A stretch of 24,071 nucleotides of DNA from a virus (lineage: Duplodnaviria > Heunggongvirae > Uroviricota > Caudoviricetes), in IMG/VR virus record IMGVR_UViG_2737471839_000014; one strand, 5' to 3'. This document shows, one piece after another, positions 16,570 to 24,071 of the stretch. The notes beneath the pieces were generated by a model. That model was not told where the DNA came from. It made no database searches and saw only the letters and a program-made list of their open reading frames with translations. The first letter of the stretch is position 1; each line of letters starts with the position of its first letter. A program made the position numbers and the translations under genes.

Positions 16570-16775
16570 TTCATTTTCACTTTCTTAAATCTAACGACAG
16601 ATGGCTAACATTTAAGTATTGTGAAATATTATCAAATGTAATCATCATTGATTTACAAAAGATACATTTTGCCCCGAAAGGATTTCTGTCAGAAACATCA
16701 AAAGATGATGTTCTATACTGAGAACCATGGCAACACGGGCATCTAAAGTGAATATGGTTTGTAATATTTTCTACC

Positions 16776-16988
16776 TCAAAGTGCCACTACATGAACAGCT
16801 GCAGGGCCTTTAGGTCCGTTCTCAATACCAAATTCGACTTCCTGATTCTCAGTTAACGTTTTGAAATCGTTGCTCTGAATAGCTGAGAAATGCACAAACA
16901 CATCTTTGCTACCATCTTTCGGCGTGATGAAACCAAAACCTTTTTCAGGGTTAAACCATTTCACTAAACCAGTCATTTTGTTAGACAT
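16776..16988 (-). CDS. cspI: cold-shock protein, CspA family (CspI-like)
   Basis: 70 aa [38 protein letters not shown]... with canonical cold-shock domain motifs (RNP1-like KGFGFI, VFVHF); ATGATG start at 16991/16988; long AT-rich 5' leader typical of csp genes. Confidence 0.85.
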
Positions 16989-17351
16989 CATTATTACCTT
17001 TTGAAGAAGTTAGCCCTTGGGCAGAATGGTCCGAAAAAAAATATCAGAGAGAAAAACCAACAAGGAAATCTCAAGAGGTACAAATAATAAAATTATAACA
17101 ATGACTGCTTCAGATAATTTTGTAACAAACCAGAACACCATTAACGCATGATTAACCAACCATAGCAAGGATTACTTTTGTAAAGAAAAACACACGAATG
17201 AAACAATAGCTTTATTTATTAATAAAACGTGTCATTCTGTCTAATGACCTTTTATCTTACCCTTAAGATTTCAAGGATTTTGACTCATGGAAGAGTCCTT
17301 TTTATTTAAATTTCACATTCAGCGCTAAAAATAATCCGATTTAATATTAAT

Positions 17352-20132: not shown

Positions 20133-20831
20133 TTTTCCTCACATATGTCATATAGTAAAGGATTATATATACCGTTGTTTTGGACGCTCAAACAGCGAAT
20201 CAGATCAAATAAAACGCACATTTGTTAACATTTACACAAAGTCTGCGTGGGATATTCTGAAAGAATATCCATAATGTGGAGAGAATCTATTGAAGTGCAT
20301 GGTGCCGGGTGCCTCCCGGTGAATTCAGTACCAGCACCTGAATCCACGATTATCCCATATACCTACTCGCTGATTGCCCCTCCGCATAGGGGGATTCACC
20401 ATGCCAGTTTCTTTTAACAAACTCCCCGCAAACCAGACAACAGTCAACCGCCTGAATTGTGAAGTATTTAAAAATTTCTCCCGCTAACTGATACCCGGCT
20501 AACAGTCTGGCGTTTTCTTTTTCAGCAACGGGAAAGCAACAACCACCACACCCGCCACCAGCACACCGTCAGCCAGCACTGACATTATCCGGCTGCTGCA
20601 ATGCCATTCACAAAAACAGTAAGCAATCACTTTTTACCGTAACAGGTGATAATCCAGATATGTATCTACCCCAGATGAGTAATCCGAAGTTCATCCATAC
20701 CACAGGTCCTGGCTATTCTGTTGTACTCCTGAACAAGAGCAAATAATTCTGAATTAGCAACCATGAACTCATCGCAAACCCTCTGTATAGCATCACTATT
20801 CAGAATAATAACGTCTCTTCCCGAAAGACGA

Positions 20832-22059: not shown

Positions 22060-22215
22060 TTACTCCTCAGGTTCGTAAGCTGTGAAGACAGCGACCTCCG
22101 TCTGGCCGGTTCGGATTCGTACCTCGCAGAGGTCTTTCCTCGTTACCAGTGCCGTCACTATGACGGTTAAACAGATGACGATCAGGGCGATTAACATCGC
22201 CTTTTGCTGCTTCAT
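22060..22215 (-). CDS. hokD: Hok/Gef family type I toxin (HokD/RelF-like)
   Basis: 51 aa MKQQKAMLIALIVICLTVIVTALVTRKDLCEVRIRTGQTEVAVFTAYEPEE, matches recalled HokD; ATG at 22215 with AAGGAG SD; track ORF 22060..22272 is an in-frame upstream extension. Confidence 0.9.
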   Translation of the reverse strand: MKQQKAMLIALIVICLTVIVTALVTRKDLCEVRIRTGQTEVAVFTAYEPEE

Positions 22216-22472
22216 AGCCTGCTTCTCCTTGCCTTTCGGCACGTAAGAGGCTAACCTACATGTGTCTAGCATGAAATTGGCCTCAGATTAATGTTAAGCG
22301 TCTTGCAGGACGCGTAATGTTAACTGGGGCTTTTCTCTACCTGCCGTTGGTGTTCGTGCCCGAGGCAGATAGCCTCAAGCACCCGCAGTCATTCTACTTA
22401 ACTAAGATTTCCCCGCAAACCGTTTTGTCCAGCACAGTAAATATCCAACTAAACCAATGGAGTTCGCTGTAT

Positions 22473-22652
22473 TTACCGCCAGTATTCAATGCACATGACC
22501 GCCATGAACACCCCTAAAAAAAGGGCATTTATATATCCAAATATTAATATCAAAACATCAACTTTTTCCATATACCTTGCTGTGAAGATGATGGGCATAC
22601 ATGATGCGAACAACCAGAACGCAACAAACAAAAACTGCAATGCGTTTTTCAT
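22473..22652 (-). CDS. small membrane protein (two predicted TM helices), unknown function
   Basis: ATG at 22652 preceded by GGGGGA; 59 aa MKNALQFLFVAFWLFASCMPIIFTARYMEKVDVLILIFGYINALFLGVFMAVMCIEYWR; track ORF starts at upstream GTG. Confidence 0.4.
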   Translation of the reverse strand: MKNALQFLFVAFWLFASCMPIIFTARYMEKVDVLILIFGYINALFLGVFMAVMCIEYWR

Positions 22653-23134
22653 TATTCCCCCTACAATCAATGTGCAATAACATTTAAACACACCTCAATT
22701 TAGCCGGACATATAAATATCTAAACCAGAAAAAATCACTTACATAGCGTTACAAACTCTTTAGTCTAAATATTCATCGTAAAACATTCCCCATACTTATC
22801 AGCCCGTTCTGCGCCAGGTAGCTCATTGCCTTATCTGGGAACCTGTAATCAGGTTTCCGGATGCTGGTGGATTTTCGCGTTTTAGTTGTTCATAAAAGTG
22901 CACAGCTTTAACCAGTTCTTCTGATGTAACCGGGACTGGCGGGGCAGTGAATAAGGCCTGAATTTCATAGTTCGGCCTATCGTTACAATCCTCTTTTTTC
23001 GGTACATATTTCCAGTCACCAGACCACTACTTCCCCTGAAAGTCCGTAACGCCTTTTTTTCACGTAGCGATATCGCCATGCCACTGTTTTTGCTTGCCCC
23101 GCCGTTTCATGCCCTTCCTGATAATTAACCTCGC

Positions 23135-23311
23135 TCATTCATCGCCCCACTCATCACAATATGCTTCGACCGGAGTTTTTCCTGCTTCATAATCATCACG
23201 CCATGCTTCAGCATCAGCAGCACTGCCACCACGTAACTCTGCATAGTCCATTAACAGTTCATGCCATTCTTCAAAACCGACGTTGTATTTAGTTGAACCA
23301 AAATCAGCCAT
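23135..23311 (-). CDS. small acidic protein, unknown function (below ORF-track cutoff)
   Basis: 58 aa MADFGSTKYNVGFEEWHELLMDYAELRGGSAADAEAWRDDYEAGKTPVEAYCDEWGDE; ATG at 23311 preceded by GAGGAAG; translated by hand from the sequence. Confidence 0.35.
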   Translation of the reverse strand: MADFGSTKYNVGFEEWHELLMDYAELRGGSAADAEAWRDDYEAGKTPVEAYCDEWGDE

Positions 23312-23348
23312 TTTGTTCTTCCTCTTCGTCTTTTATTTCGTGATATGA

Positions 23349-23486
23349 TTAATTGCAGTAGTTAAAGAAAATATCTTTTGCTTCGTCATGTATTTCATCA
23401 GGCGTCGCATCATTATCCACTTCGAATTCATCCTCGAAATCTCCACCGGCTATTCCCGTTTCAATAATTATTTTAAACTTTCGCAT
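23349..23486 (-). CDS. small acidic protein, unknown function (below ORF-track cutoff)
   Basis: 45 aa MRKFKIIIETGIAGGDFEDEFEVDNDATPDEIHDEAKDIFFNYCN; ATG at 23486 preceded by AGGAGG and a GC hairpin; translated by hand. Confidence 0.3.
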   Translation of the reverse strand: MRKFKIIIETGIAGGDFEDEFEVDNDATPDEIHDEAKDIFFNYCN

Positions 23487-23891
23487 TTAACTACCGCCCT
23501 TTCGGGCGGCCTCCTGATGTTCTGAGGGTGCAGAAATCCCTCCGGTTAAGGATTAAATTTTTAACAGTGCTAAATTTAATTATTCAGTTCTGGATTTTGT
23601 CACCCTGCGTATCCGCGCTTTCCCGTTACGCTCAATCTGAATTAGCTTTTCTATATTTTTTCGCCTTTCCCGTTCCTCCTGGCGCAAGAGCCTTACATCA
23701 TCTGCCAGTCTGGTTTCTCTTTTCGCCACAGAGAGCATCCAGTCAAATGGCTCCACAACTGCACCTCAGATTTTACAGCGGACCTGACGCTCTTTTTCGT
23801 CAACCCGGACAGAAGCGTGATGGCAATATGGTCTTTCCGATGGCTCATAAAGAAAATTAACCTGATTACGAGGGTCATCCTCTTTTATCGG

Positions 23892-24071
23892 TGAACCGCC
23901 CCGGGTTTCCTGGAGAGTGTTTTATCTGTGAACTCAGGCTGCCAGATCATTGTTTCCGATGGAAGCATAATAAGCTTTTTCTGCTTCTGCCGGAGGAGTA
24001 TGGCCCAGCCTTCCCAGCAATCGTCGATTGTTATACCAGTCCACCCACGTGAGTGTGGCCAGTTCCACTTC
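23892..24071. mobile_element. end of an IS3-family insertion sequence (IS629/IS1203-like), truncated by window edge
   Basis: terminal sequence TGAACCGCCCCGGGTTTCCTGGAGAGTG starting at 23892 matches recalled IS629-type inverted repeat; followed by transposase 3' end on minus strand. Confidence 0.65.
23934..24071 (-). CDS. IS3-family transposase OrfB, C-terminal fragment (5' end outside window)
   Basis: minus-strand translation ...EVELATLTWVDWYNNRRLLGRLGHTPPAEAEKAYYASIGNNDLAA stop; resembles C-termini of IS3-family transposases. Confidence 0.7.
   Translation of the reverse strand, partial: EVELATLTWVDWYNNRRLLGRLGHTPPAEAEKAYYASIGNNDLAA

Follow-up and report, generated by a model that had tools for sequence, protein, structure and literature searches.

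Gene content of the region upstream of hokD

The region studied here is a 1-kb stretch of a 24,071-nucleotide phage DNA that was analysed as a whole (hereafter designated the window), and forms part of the early-right accessory region in an E. coli lambdoid prophage of the Qin/DicB type. It contains ordinary, partly decayed accessory genes of a lambda-like prophage, namely a truncated DUF7167 gene, an intact gene for an acidic 58-residue protein, and a dead phrog_660-type gene, plus an unannotated ORF for a 59-residue protein with two predicted transmembrane (TM) segments, designated o59 (Table 1). The three small-protein genes that the initial annotation had placed on the minus strand were confirmed as genuine and lie where it had located them. 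Their plausible Shine–Dalgarno (SD) sequences were likewise found, namely TAGGGGG for o59, GAGGA for the 58-residue ORF, and AGGAGG, preceding a GC hairpin, for the 45-residue ORF that represents DUF7167.

The stretch sits where lambda has its nin region, with replication genes on one side and hokD-rem-ydfU-Q on the other; in the RefSeq annotation of an identical locus, the order is an O-like replication gene, DUF977, small genes, hokD, rem, ydfU, and Q. The remainder of the window carries lambdoid lysis, head, and tail genes. The region is bounded by the end of an IS3-family element, which truncates the 5' end of an upstream phrog_1621-type gene, leaving a remnant ORF (23580–23756, minus strand) that matches the C-terminal half of phrog_1621 (E = 1.4e-23). 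In uninterrupted loci, homology to the window begins at 23891, just outside the IS3-family end, and an IS3 family transposase is annotated by RefSeq in the related genome H53. Many spurious ORFs of comparable length are present in the window. DUF7167, the peptide sequences, and the RefSeq accessions were not mentioned in any paper found.

Table 1 Features at and around the region upstream of hokD (window coordinates)
Feature	Position	Strand	Evidence or detail
IS3-family element end, bounding the region	23892–24071	-	Transposase C-terminus ORF
AGGAGG, then GCCGCCC-GAAA-GGGCGGT hairpin, 7 nt, and ATG of DUF7167 gene	23493–23515	-	RNA fold
Block A: three small phage genes with overlapping stops/starts	23486–22823	-	DUF7167, 58-aa gene, phrog_660 gene
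45-aa ORF, truncated allele of DUF7167/phrog_1997 gene	23349–23486	-	Pfam PF23768, phrog_1997, RefSeq 'DUF7167 family protein'
Canonical 60-codon DUF7167 frame	23304–23486	-	Premature TAA 23349–23351; native TGA 23304–23306
58-aa acidic protein gene, phrog_519, intact	23135–23311	-	phrog_519 match; RefSeq WP_000753057.1
Dead phrog_660-type gene	22823–23138	-	RefSeq 'frameshifted; internal stop'; A7 run 23054–23060; TAG 23027–23029
40-codon frame, 5' stump of dead phrog_660 gene	23016–23138	-	Start overlaps 58-aa stop as ATGA
Block B: 59-aa two-TM ORF (o59) and hok/sok	about 22790–22060	-	
Putative o59 expression signals	22657–22690	-	Extended -10-like TGnTTAAAT 22682–22690; SD-like TAGGGGG 22657–22663
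o59, unannotated 59-aa two-TM membrane protein gene	22473–22652	-	ORF list, hydropathy, paralogue
T7 run within o59, frameshift-variant site	22516–22522	-	Protein variants, 1-nt deletion
hok/sok locus adjoining o59	22060–22418	-	Rfam RF01794, RefSeq hokD
Promoter-like TTGCGG-16-TAGAAT, hok/sok locus	22391–22418	-	
sok	22210–22384	-	Rfam RF01794 match, 107.8 bits
mok start	22272	-	
hokD CDS	22060–22215	-	

Structure and decay of the acidic genes

The 45-residue ORF exists and is acidic (pI 4.05), as initially annotated, but proved to be a nonsense-truncated allele of a 60-codon gene. It scored 41 bits with the Pfam DUF7167 profile, above the gathering threshold of 24.4 (E = 2.1e-10), and matched phrog_1997 (E = 2.1e-23); its match covers profile positions 1–52 of 60 and is thus shorter than the full-length domain (about 60 residues, beta-beta-alpha-beta), for which the 60-residue copy in phage ArgO145 scores 55 bits. 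In the majority of related loci, DUF7167 has the 60-residue form with the C-terminal end ...NYCNYSYHEIKDEEEEQNG. In the window, a TAC-to-TAA nonsense mutation stops the frame at codon 46, whereas other loci keep TAC; the TAA allele was seen in 10 of 130 loci, and the gene is truncated in further alleles as well. On the predicted beta-beta-alpha-beta fold, the premature stop removes strand 3 (residues 46–51), so that the window protein would have lost its last strand together with its acidic tail (Asp and Glu account for 20 of the 60 full-length residues). Comparison with a 79%-identical copy gave a dN/dS (omega) of 0.18, indicating purifying selection. The hairpin upstream of the start codon has a 7-bp stem in both the minimum-free-energy and centroid structures and is conserved among loci.

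The native TGA of DUF7167 overlaps codons 2–3 of the 58-residue ORF (stop/start overlap read from the sequence as ATGGCTGA), which was described correctly as acidic (pI 4.05; 16 Asp and Glu among 58 residues) and is an intact phrog_519 gene, its residues 1–58 aligning with profile positions 76–137 of 143 (E = 5.5e-22) and its GAGGA lying 9 nt upstream of the ATG. The gene has homologues in Salmonella as well as in E. coli and the Enterobacter cloacae complex. Relative to the Enterobacter homologue, dN is 0.12 with dS saturated, and the gene is under strong purifying selection. The protein is predicted to form a three-helix bundle (pLDDT 81), for which a PDB structure search returned zero neighbours and a wider structure search only uncharacterised viral proteins. 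Both the 45- and 58-residue ORFs are, on sequence grounds, more than chance frames.

The initial annotation had also noted an ATG that overlaps the 58-residue stop as ATGA and opens a 39-codon frame across an A7 run. The overlap and the run are both present, but the frame has 40 codons and is a pseudogene fragment, not a gene. The phrog_660 profile matches the fragments on both sides of the lesions (E = 0.0028 and 4.4e-16), with no intact frame between them: the TAG is in-frame in the ancestral (A6) frame, and the 3' part runs in another frame to 22823. Indeed, an intact 155-residue relative in phage mEp460 (76% identity) aligns straight over the frameshift and the stop, and PGAP likewise calls a pseudogene. 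A programmed frameshift site at the A7 run was considered and rejected, since the downstream ancestral frame also contains the TAG and the length of the run differs between loci, from A5 to A8.

The three small cytoplasmic phage genes of Block A are probably translationally coupled, and in the window the block is half decayed, with DUF7167 truncated and the third gene dead. Of 5426 complete E. coli genomes, 1909 contain the DUF7167/58-residue pair; in resident prophages, both genes have often decayed.

Possible roles of the acidic proteins

What the analysis shows directly is how the genes are built, the families to which they belong, their decay lesions, the signals of selection, and the patterns of linkage; functional roles, as well as expression and localisation, are what we infer for these ORFs. 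[quoted passage not shown] Because the pair is located in this early region of Stx2 phages beside Ead/Ea22-like genes, the most likely role of Block A, put forward tentatively, is that of early-expressed, non-essential modulators, which might bind host or phage proteins in the lysis-lysogeny decision. The exo-xis region of Stx phages is known to affect prophage induction and hence toxin production.

The known ORFs of this region in lambda and Stx phages (orf60a, orf63, orf61, orf73, ea22, and orf55) are likewise strings of overlapping genes of about 60 codons with unknown biochemical function; they are non-essential and highly mosaic and have Ead/Ea22-like genes as neighbours, and it is in precisely that region that the ArgO145 pair sits. 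Moreover, a published model of lambda Orf55 agrees with our DUF7167 model in its predicted beta-beta-alpha-beta fold class and in its three PDB neighbours (PMC8614690). However, the lambda ORFs belong to Pfam DUF1317 and DUF1382, neither of which is matched by the window proteins, and the window genes lie on the other prophage arm, in the interval from the replication genes to Q. We rejected homology with the exo-xis ORFs of lambda (best BLASTP E = 0.56; hhalign probability below 1% for DUF7167 versus Orf55). In position, the window genes correspond instead to the lambda nin region (ren-ninA..ninI, P to Q), which also consists of many short, overlapping, dispensable genes expressed from pR, and in one Enterobacter prophage the 58-residue gene lies in a stretch with NinE and NinG; unlike that region, the four window frames belong to no Nin family, and hokD-rem-ydfU replaces most of the nin genes.

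The acidity of both proteins and the early exo-xis location of both genes are also compatible with DUF7167 and/or the 58-residue protein being early host-takeover or anti-defence inhibitors, that is, acidic mimics like T7 Gp2, phi29 p56, and Ocr. The best PDB match of the DUF7167 model was the RNA polymerase inhibitor T7 Gp2, itself a small acidic beta-beta-alpha-beta phage protein (TM 0.51/0.58), with p56 also listed, and the fold class and three PDB neighbours shared with Orf55 of the same region point the same way. The Foldseek match to Gp2 was, however, not significant (E = 0.97, probability 0.44), and a weak match to ribosomal protein uL23 competed with it; a Gp2-like or uL23-like assignment of DUF7167 from structure was rejected for this lack of significance. 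Profile comparison gave probabilities below 1% with both Gp2 (0.3% by hhalign, for a manually entered Gp2 sequence) and Orf55, the 58-residue model has no PDB neighbour, and the genes are often found decayed in resident prophages. We consider such inhibitors unlikely here, and return to the acidic genes as candidate modulators, which count among the numerous early lambdoid 'dark matter' genes, partly dead in the window and with nothing distinctive about them.

o59 and its linkage with hok/sok

The 59-residue ORF, initially annotated as a two-TM membrane protein, shows two hydropathy peaks (approximately residues 3–26 and 30–57). Its ATG lies within a 72-codon GTG-started ORF (22473–22691, minus strand), and the SD-like TAGGGGG ends 4 nt upstream of this ATG. 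Together with the extended -10-like TGnTTAAAT, it may serve as an expression signal; in the alignment with a paralogue, designated P0162, which resides in a Rac-prophage remnant of other E. coli, the corresponding positions are occupied by TGCTTAACT and AGGGA. Scans around o59 for consensus sigma-70 promoters and terminators gave nothing convincing. o59 had zero matches in Pfam, NCBIfam, PHROG, and PADLOC and no similarity to known type I toxin families, and an exhaustive protein search returned just its own two lineages. Relatives were sought by a word-indexed search, this exhaustive search (HMMER on 1.8 billion representatives), and a survey of 185,579 species genomes, all yielding E. coli and Shigella only, to whose prophages o59 thus appears confined; an Asticcacaulis match over 27 residues was dismissed as chance. 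Among 5426 complete E. coli genomes, o59 was found in 1569 and the paralogue in 1045, the two sets being counted separately. An antisense ORF labelled 'hornerin' in phage records was also discarded, as it is closed in the paralogue and not conserved.

The hok promoter follows o59 on the same strand after 54 nt, a gap in which no terminator is predicted. RNA family searches of the region returned sok as the sole match, and in about 157 of 162 loci o59 is accompanied by both the spacer and sok. In the Rac remnant, a decayed hok 3' fragment, 81% identical to window positions 22086–22147, follows the paralogue at a distance of 55 nt. Block B is a self-contained cassette of about 400 nt, in which o59, encoding a predicted helical-hairpin inner-membrane protein of 59 residues, is joined to a hok/sok type I toxin-antitoxin.

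The most likely site of action of o59 is the inner membrane, where it would be an accessory ('moron'-type) factor of the prophage, serving exclusion or membrane modulation, possibly in connection with Hok. A role as a class II holin or pinholin was rejected because of its location: o59 is situated between the replication genes and hokD, not beside an endolysin, and the lysis genes (essD, lysozyme, and Rz-like) are about 4 kb away, beyond Q.

A closer coupling, in which o59 would either dampen or enhance Hok as its membrane partner, or be a second membrane effector of the same stabilisation or abortive-infection cassette, is suggested by the spacing and shared strand, by the sok linkage in nearly all sampled loci, by the hok fragment beside the anciently diverged paralogue, and by the asymmetry that hok often occurs without o59 while o59 was never observed apart from hok sequence. 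Yet both adjacencies may derive from one ancestral block, and the genes are too close for recombination to part them often. Moreover, the 10,848 hok/sok places found against 1,630 o59 places leave about 85% of hokD-type loci without o59, so that any functional link between the two cannot be an obligatory one. Conversely, both the Rac remnant and loci disrupted by IS elements keep o59 intact with their hok destroyed, and the hok/sok of plasmid R1 functions without any protein partner. Such coupling seems rather improbable to us.

A more specific form of it would make o59 an unrecognised protein component of hokD-type hok/sok loci in lambdoid prophages, a two-TM inner-membrane peptide that physically modulates Hok, giving either immunity against leaky or premature Hok while the phage itself develops or a co-effector in abortive infection. 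This is a long shot; behind it stands the retention of the o59–hok adjacency in two lineages, the o59 copies of which are now 59% identical at the nucleotide level. If true, a protein layer would be added to a system thought to be purely RNA-controlled. Since o59 is always beside hok sequence, its candidacy as an accessory factor of a classic type I toxin-antitoxin system can be tested cheaply. Compared with the known systems (plasmid R1 parB; hokD/relF of K-12 Qin), o59 is likewise a small hydrophobic peptide of inner-membrane type beside a complete hok/mok/sok, and its paralogue adjoins a hok remnant; it differs in its two predicted TM segments and lack of Hok similarity and in its absence from most hokD-type loci, and hok/sok systems are known to need no protein partner. 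Neither a described antisense RNA family (Rfam over o59, even at E <= 1) nor a promoter-like site on the opposite strand was detected. In K-12 Qin, relBE takes the place upstream of hokD, and in many genomes with a prophage of this type the homology to the window is broken within the hok promoter.

Protein-level constraint on o59

o59 is judged to be a real gene under protein-level constraint, mainly by comparison with P0162. The two encode proteins of 59 residues that are 41% identical without gaps (E = 1.2e-8), and share 24 identical residues against an expectation of 16.6 ± 2.4. A neutral simulation of unconstrained substitution gave a joint P of 1.25e-4. In the DNA, identity is 59%, distributed over the codon positions as 58, 69, and 47%, that is, in the order 2 > 1 > 3, with a dN of 0.47, a dS of about 2, and a dN/dS of about 0.24. 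Start, stop, and all 59 codons are nevertheless kept free of indels, whereas the flanking alignments contain indels; the o59 frame is the sole one open in both copies, and an SD-like element stands at a matching distance in each. These features argue against o59 being a frame left open by chance in the T-rich non-coding sequence ahead of the hok promoter, which is improbable on balance, although several observations would fit it: the missing PGAP call in every RefSeq record inspected, the missing protein family matches, and the richness of the window in spurious ORFs of similar length. The argument for coding comes from one deep comparison, that of two lineages each of which is near-clonal.

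Within the o59 lineage, 79 of 81 DNA-anchored loci keep the ORF intact, but this intactness is unusable as evidence, because the block 22790–22385 is uniformly conserved, its non-coding flank as much as the ORF. All 9 polymorphic sites in the ORF among sampled copies are nonsynonymous (0 synonymous) and therefore give no sign of purifying selection within the lineage; this test is uninformative, if anything unfavourable, and these sites, like the frameshifted variants, count for a chance frame. The variants change frame at the T7 run (..ALFF-RGVHGGHVH), where a 1-nt deletion was found in one sampled locus; among database proteins, such variants are not rare. Taken as the gene that it appears to be, o59 is a concrete case of a small-protein gene missed by gene callers, and constitutes a gap in RefSeq annotation.

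Two probably independent mosaic blocks upstream of hokD

The initial annotation had proposed that small membrane and acidic proteins together make up a toxin/immunity or anti-defence module. Their occurrence within 1 kb on one strand, the low pI of the acidic pair, and the prophage accessory region itself, a typical home of such systems, would suit this proposal, but the linkage data largely refute it, and we regard it as very improbable: a dead gene, a spacer of about 170 nt, and mosaic breakpoints separate the acidic pair from o59, two of the four frames in the window are damaged, the fourth being a pseudogene stump, and searches of PADLOC-DB with five proteins returned no match at E <= 1. 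The reading frames of the 58-residue gene, the 60-residue DUF7167, and o59 are each conserved in related prophages, as had been asked of genuine genes, but are not co-inherited. Collectively, two independent mosaic blocks in a prophage accessory region, rather than one module, are likely to be the best explanation. The acidic pair occurs without o59 in Stx2 phages (ArgO145), and the 58-residue gene without o59 in Enterobacter prophages; DUF7167 is truncated, with o59 intact, in the window and in other alleles; and the acidic pair is missing from at least 22 o59 loci with enough upstream sequence, as it is beside the paralogue of the Rac remnant.

Organization and linkage of the small genes

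The four frames lie exactly where the initial annotation had placed them, in a lambdoid E. coli prophage in which every gene is on the minus strand and which carries tail, head, and terminase genes, a lysis cassette, the Q antiterminator, ydfU, rem, and hokD. In a RefSeq genome identical over positions 22300–23600, the gene order is exonuclease, ydfD, dicB, repressor/Cro, a YdaT-like gene, an O-like replication gene, DUF977, the small genes, hokD, rem, ydfU, and Q, and the small genes thus occupy the position of the lambda nin region. Public annotation already covers three of these frames, two as genes of families of unknown function and one as a pseudogene. The remaining frame, a 59-aa ORF (designated o59), has no match in Pfam, NCBIfam, PHROGs, or PADLOC and is absent from the annotation of every RefSeq record inspected.

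The proposal that these frames form one small-protein module of the toxin/immunity or anti-defence kind upstream of hokD is not supported. The DUF7167 and 58-aa genes were missing from at least 22 o59 loci with sufficient upstream sequence, examples of the acidic genes lacking o59 came from both Stx phages and Enterobacter, and mosaic junctions coincide with the pseudogene's 3' end and interrupt the hok promoter. The region is described below as two blocks (A and B).

Coordinates of features in the window, unless another stretch is named
Feature	Position	Strand	Remarks
IS3-family element	23892–24071	-	Terminal repeat TGAACCGCCCCGGG; inserted just upstream of the small genes
phrog_1621-type gene remnant ORF	23580–23756	-	58-codon C-terminal piece; 5' part removed by the IS3-family element
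Leader of DUF7167 gene	23493–23515	-	AGGAGG, 7-bp GC hairpin with GAAA loop, then 7 nt to the start codon
Block A	23486–22823	-	DUF7167 frame, 58-aa ORF, phrog_660 pseudogene
A-run in pseudogene	23054–23060	-	A5 to A8 across related loci
Block B	~22790–22060	-	o59 and hok/sok
o59	22473–22652	-	59-aa ORF
T7 run in o59	22516–22522	-	Length varies among related loci
Loss of homology	~22397–22404		Inside hok promoter region
Match to Rac-remnant hok fragment	22086–22147		Fragment at L165 1063–1124 = L166 6063–6124 (stretches of the Rac-prophage remnant)
STnc100 sRNA	20243–20433	-	Rfam, 111 bits
cspA thermoregulator 5'UTR	16730–17146	-	Rfam, 110 bits
Other hydrophobic ORF (29 codons)	L183 27964–28053	-	Prophage of E. 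coli O91:H21 FWSEC0008; product MLVLKCALAITAVMAIYCLAIVLMDRLSD

o59 is an overlooked small membrane-protein gene

Although it has been overlooked, o59 is a real gene for a small membrane protein. It occurs only in prophages of E. coli/Shigella, is tied to hok, and belongs to the small prophage accessory proteins, an already known kind of element. As described initially, its product contains two hydrophobic segments. Its DNA was found in 1569 genomes with identity of at least 95% throughout, and a one-genome-per-species scan detected the family in Shigella flexneri only. The frame is kept in 79 of 81 DNA-anchored loci; since the flanking non-coding DNA is equally conserved, this retention within the lineage is uninformative. 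All nine polymorphic sites are nonsynonymous, and length variation of the T7 run gives rise to frameshifted variants, some of which may be sequencing errors because many come from raw-read assemblies.

The decisive evidence for o59 as a gene is a 59-aa paralogue retrieved by exhaustive protein search (41% identical, E 1.2e-8, gap-free, sharing both start and stop). It resides in the Rac prophage remnant between ttcA and uspF of B2-type E. coli, e.g., NC101 and 83972, and is present, likewise unannotated, in 1045 genomes. The two DNA sequences are 59% identical (58/69/47% by codon position; dN 0.47, dS ~2). When divergence without constraint was simulated 200,000 times up to the observed level, the frame stayed open in 2.6% of runs, 24 identical residues were reached in 0.25%, and both occurred in 0.0125%; o59 and the paralogue share no other open frame. 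The flanks align over ~170 nt upstream with several indels, while the ORF has none. Furthermore, a stop just upstream of the paralogue's ATG supports the originally assigned 59-codon ATG start. From the alignment, an SD-like element rich in G and a motif TGnTTAAnT can be read at corresponding positions of both copies; a consensus scan flagged no promoter there. Presumably, o59 would form an inner-membrane helical hairpin, expressed from its own small cassette and acting at the membrane.

Association of o59 with hok

Among ~162 sampled o59 loci (some contigs being sampled twice), the spacer and sok accompany o59 in ~157. In the window, 54 nt separate the end of o59 from a hok promoter-like TTGCGG-16-TAGAAT. 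Unexpectedly, a decayed hok 3' fragment (VTKKDLHQVRI*GGQMEV; 81% identical to the corresponding window sequence) is also found 55 nt after the paralogue in the Rac remnant, where deletion has removed sok, mok, and the promoter as well as the 5' part of hok. Because the paralogue, too, precedes a hok fragment, the o59–hok adjacency is older than the split of the two o59 lineages. This association is one-sided: hokD-type loci number 10,848 places across 4722 genomes, far more than the 1,630 places of o59, and hok therefore does not need o59. In the Rac remnant, as in loci disrupted by IS elements, hok is destroyed yet o59 survives. The association may have a functional basis, or the two may simply have stayed physical neighbours since a single ancestral block.

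In many E. coli genomes otherwise matching the window at 98–99%, homology is lost inside the hok promoter region, which marks a recurrent mosaic junction. One mosaic variant, with homology ending at ~22400, carries an unannotated 29-codon ORF directly upstream of the hok promoter (L183, a prophage stretch), with a GTG start, AGGAGG 5 nt upstream, and no match in Pfam or NCBIfam.

Block A: two family genes and a pseudogene

The 45-aa ORF matches Pfam DUF7167 above threshold and also phrog_1997. A product of 60 aa is usual across the 130 related loci; codon 46 is TAC in other loci versus TAA in the window, an allele shared by only 10 of the 130, and another common allele is truncated to 36 aa. 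Against the AlphaFold model of the 60-aa form (beta-beta-alpha-beta, pLDDT 77), the window's TAA deletes the acidic tail together with strand 3. In the full-length frame, the native TGA lies across codons 2–3 of the 58-aa gene (ATGGCTGA). The top fold match, T7 Gp2, is not significant (E 0.97) and is of the fold class proposed for lambda Orf55; profile comparisons following this Gp2/Orf55 lead gave probabilities below 1%, and a weak sequence match to uL23 (E 0.009) also fell short of significance. Upstream, the leader hairpin, if formed, would bring a perfect AGGAGG to normal spacing from the start codon in a split-SD-like manner; it is conserved among loci, with no compensatory changes seen among them.

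The 58-aa ORF is intact and matches phrog_519, with homologues in Enterobacter and Salmonella; comparison with the Enterobacter copy gave a dN of 0.12 with synonymous sites saturated. Structure prediction gave a three-helix bundle (pLDDT 81), for which structure searches returned no PDB neighbours and only uncharacterised viral proteins. The 45-aa and 58-aa products are indeed acidic, both with pI 4.05.

The stop of the 58-aa ORF overlaps the next ATG as ATGA, opening the fourth frame across an A7 run; both features are real, although this frame has 40 codons rather than the 39 first counted. It and a second downstream frame each match phrog_660, and an intact 155-aa relative in phage mEp460 (76% identity) aligns continuously across the frame junction. 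From this alignment, the ancestral frame requires six A residues (A6) in the run and bears TAG at the position of an mEp460 Pro. PGAP labels the gene 'frameshifted; internal stop', and the length variation of the A-run is what slippage would produce once a gene is dead.

In the Stx2a phage ArgO145, the 60-aa DUF7167 gene is gp15 and the 58-aa gene gp14, and the pair is found in 1909 of 5426 complete E. coli genomes. In Enterobacter prophages, an Ead/Ea22-like gene is followed by the 58-aa gene, near xis/int or in a nin-type region. We infer that the Block A genes would act early, as dispensable modulators in the cytoplasm resembling those of the exo-xis/nin type (PMC8614690).

Neighbouring elements

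The IS3-family element stands between the small genes and the early promoter region. The STnc100 and cspA thermoregulator matches, both above the gathering scores, map to the late/lysis portion of this prophage. At 91% identity, this lambdoid region of E. coli also occurs in PP818812.1, a genome deposited as 'Actinobacillus phage vB_Apl-pPE4', whose host assignment to Actinobacillus looks doubtful.
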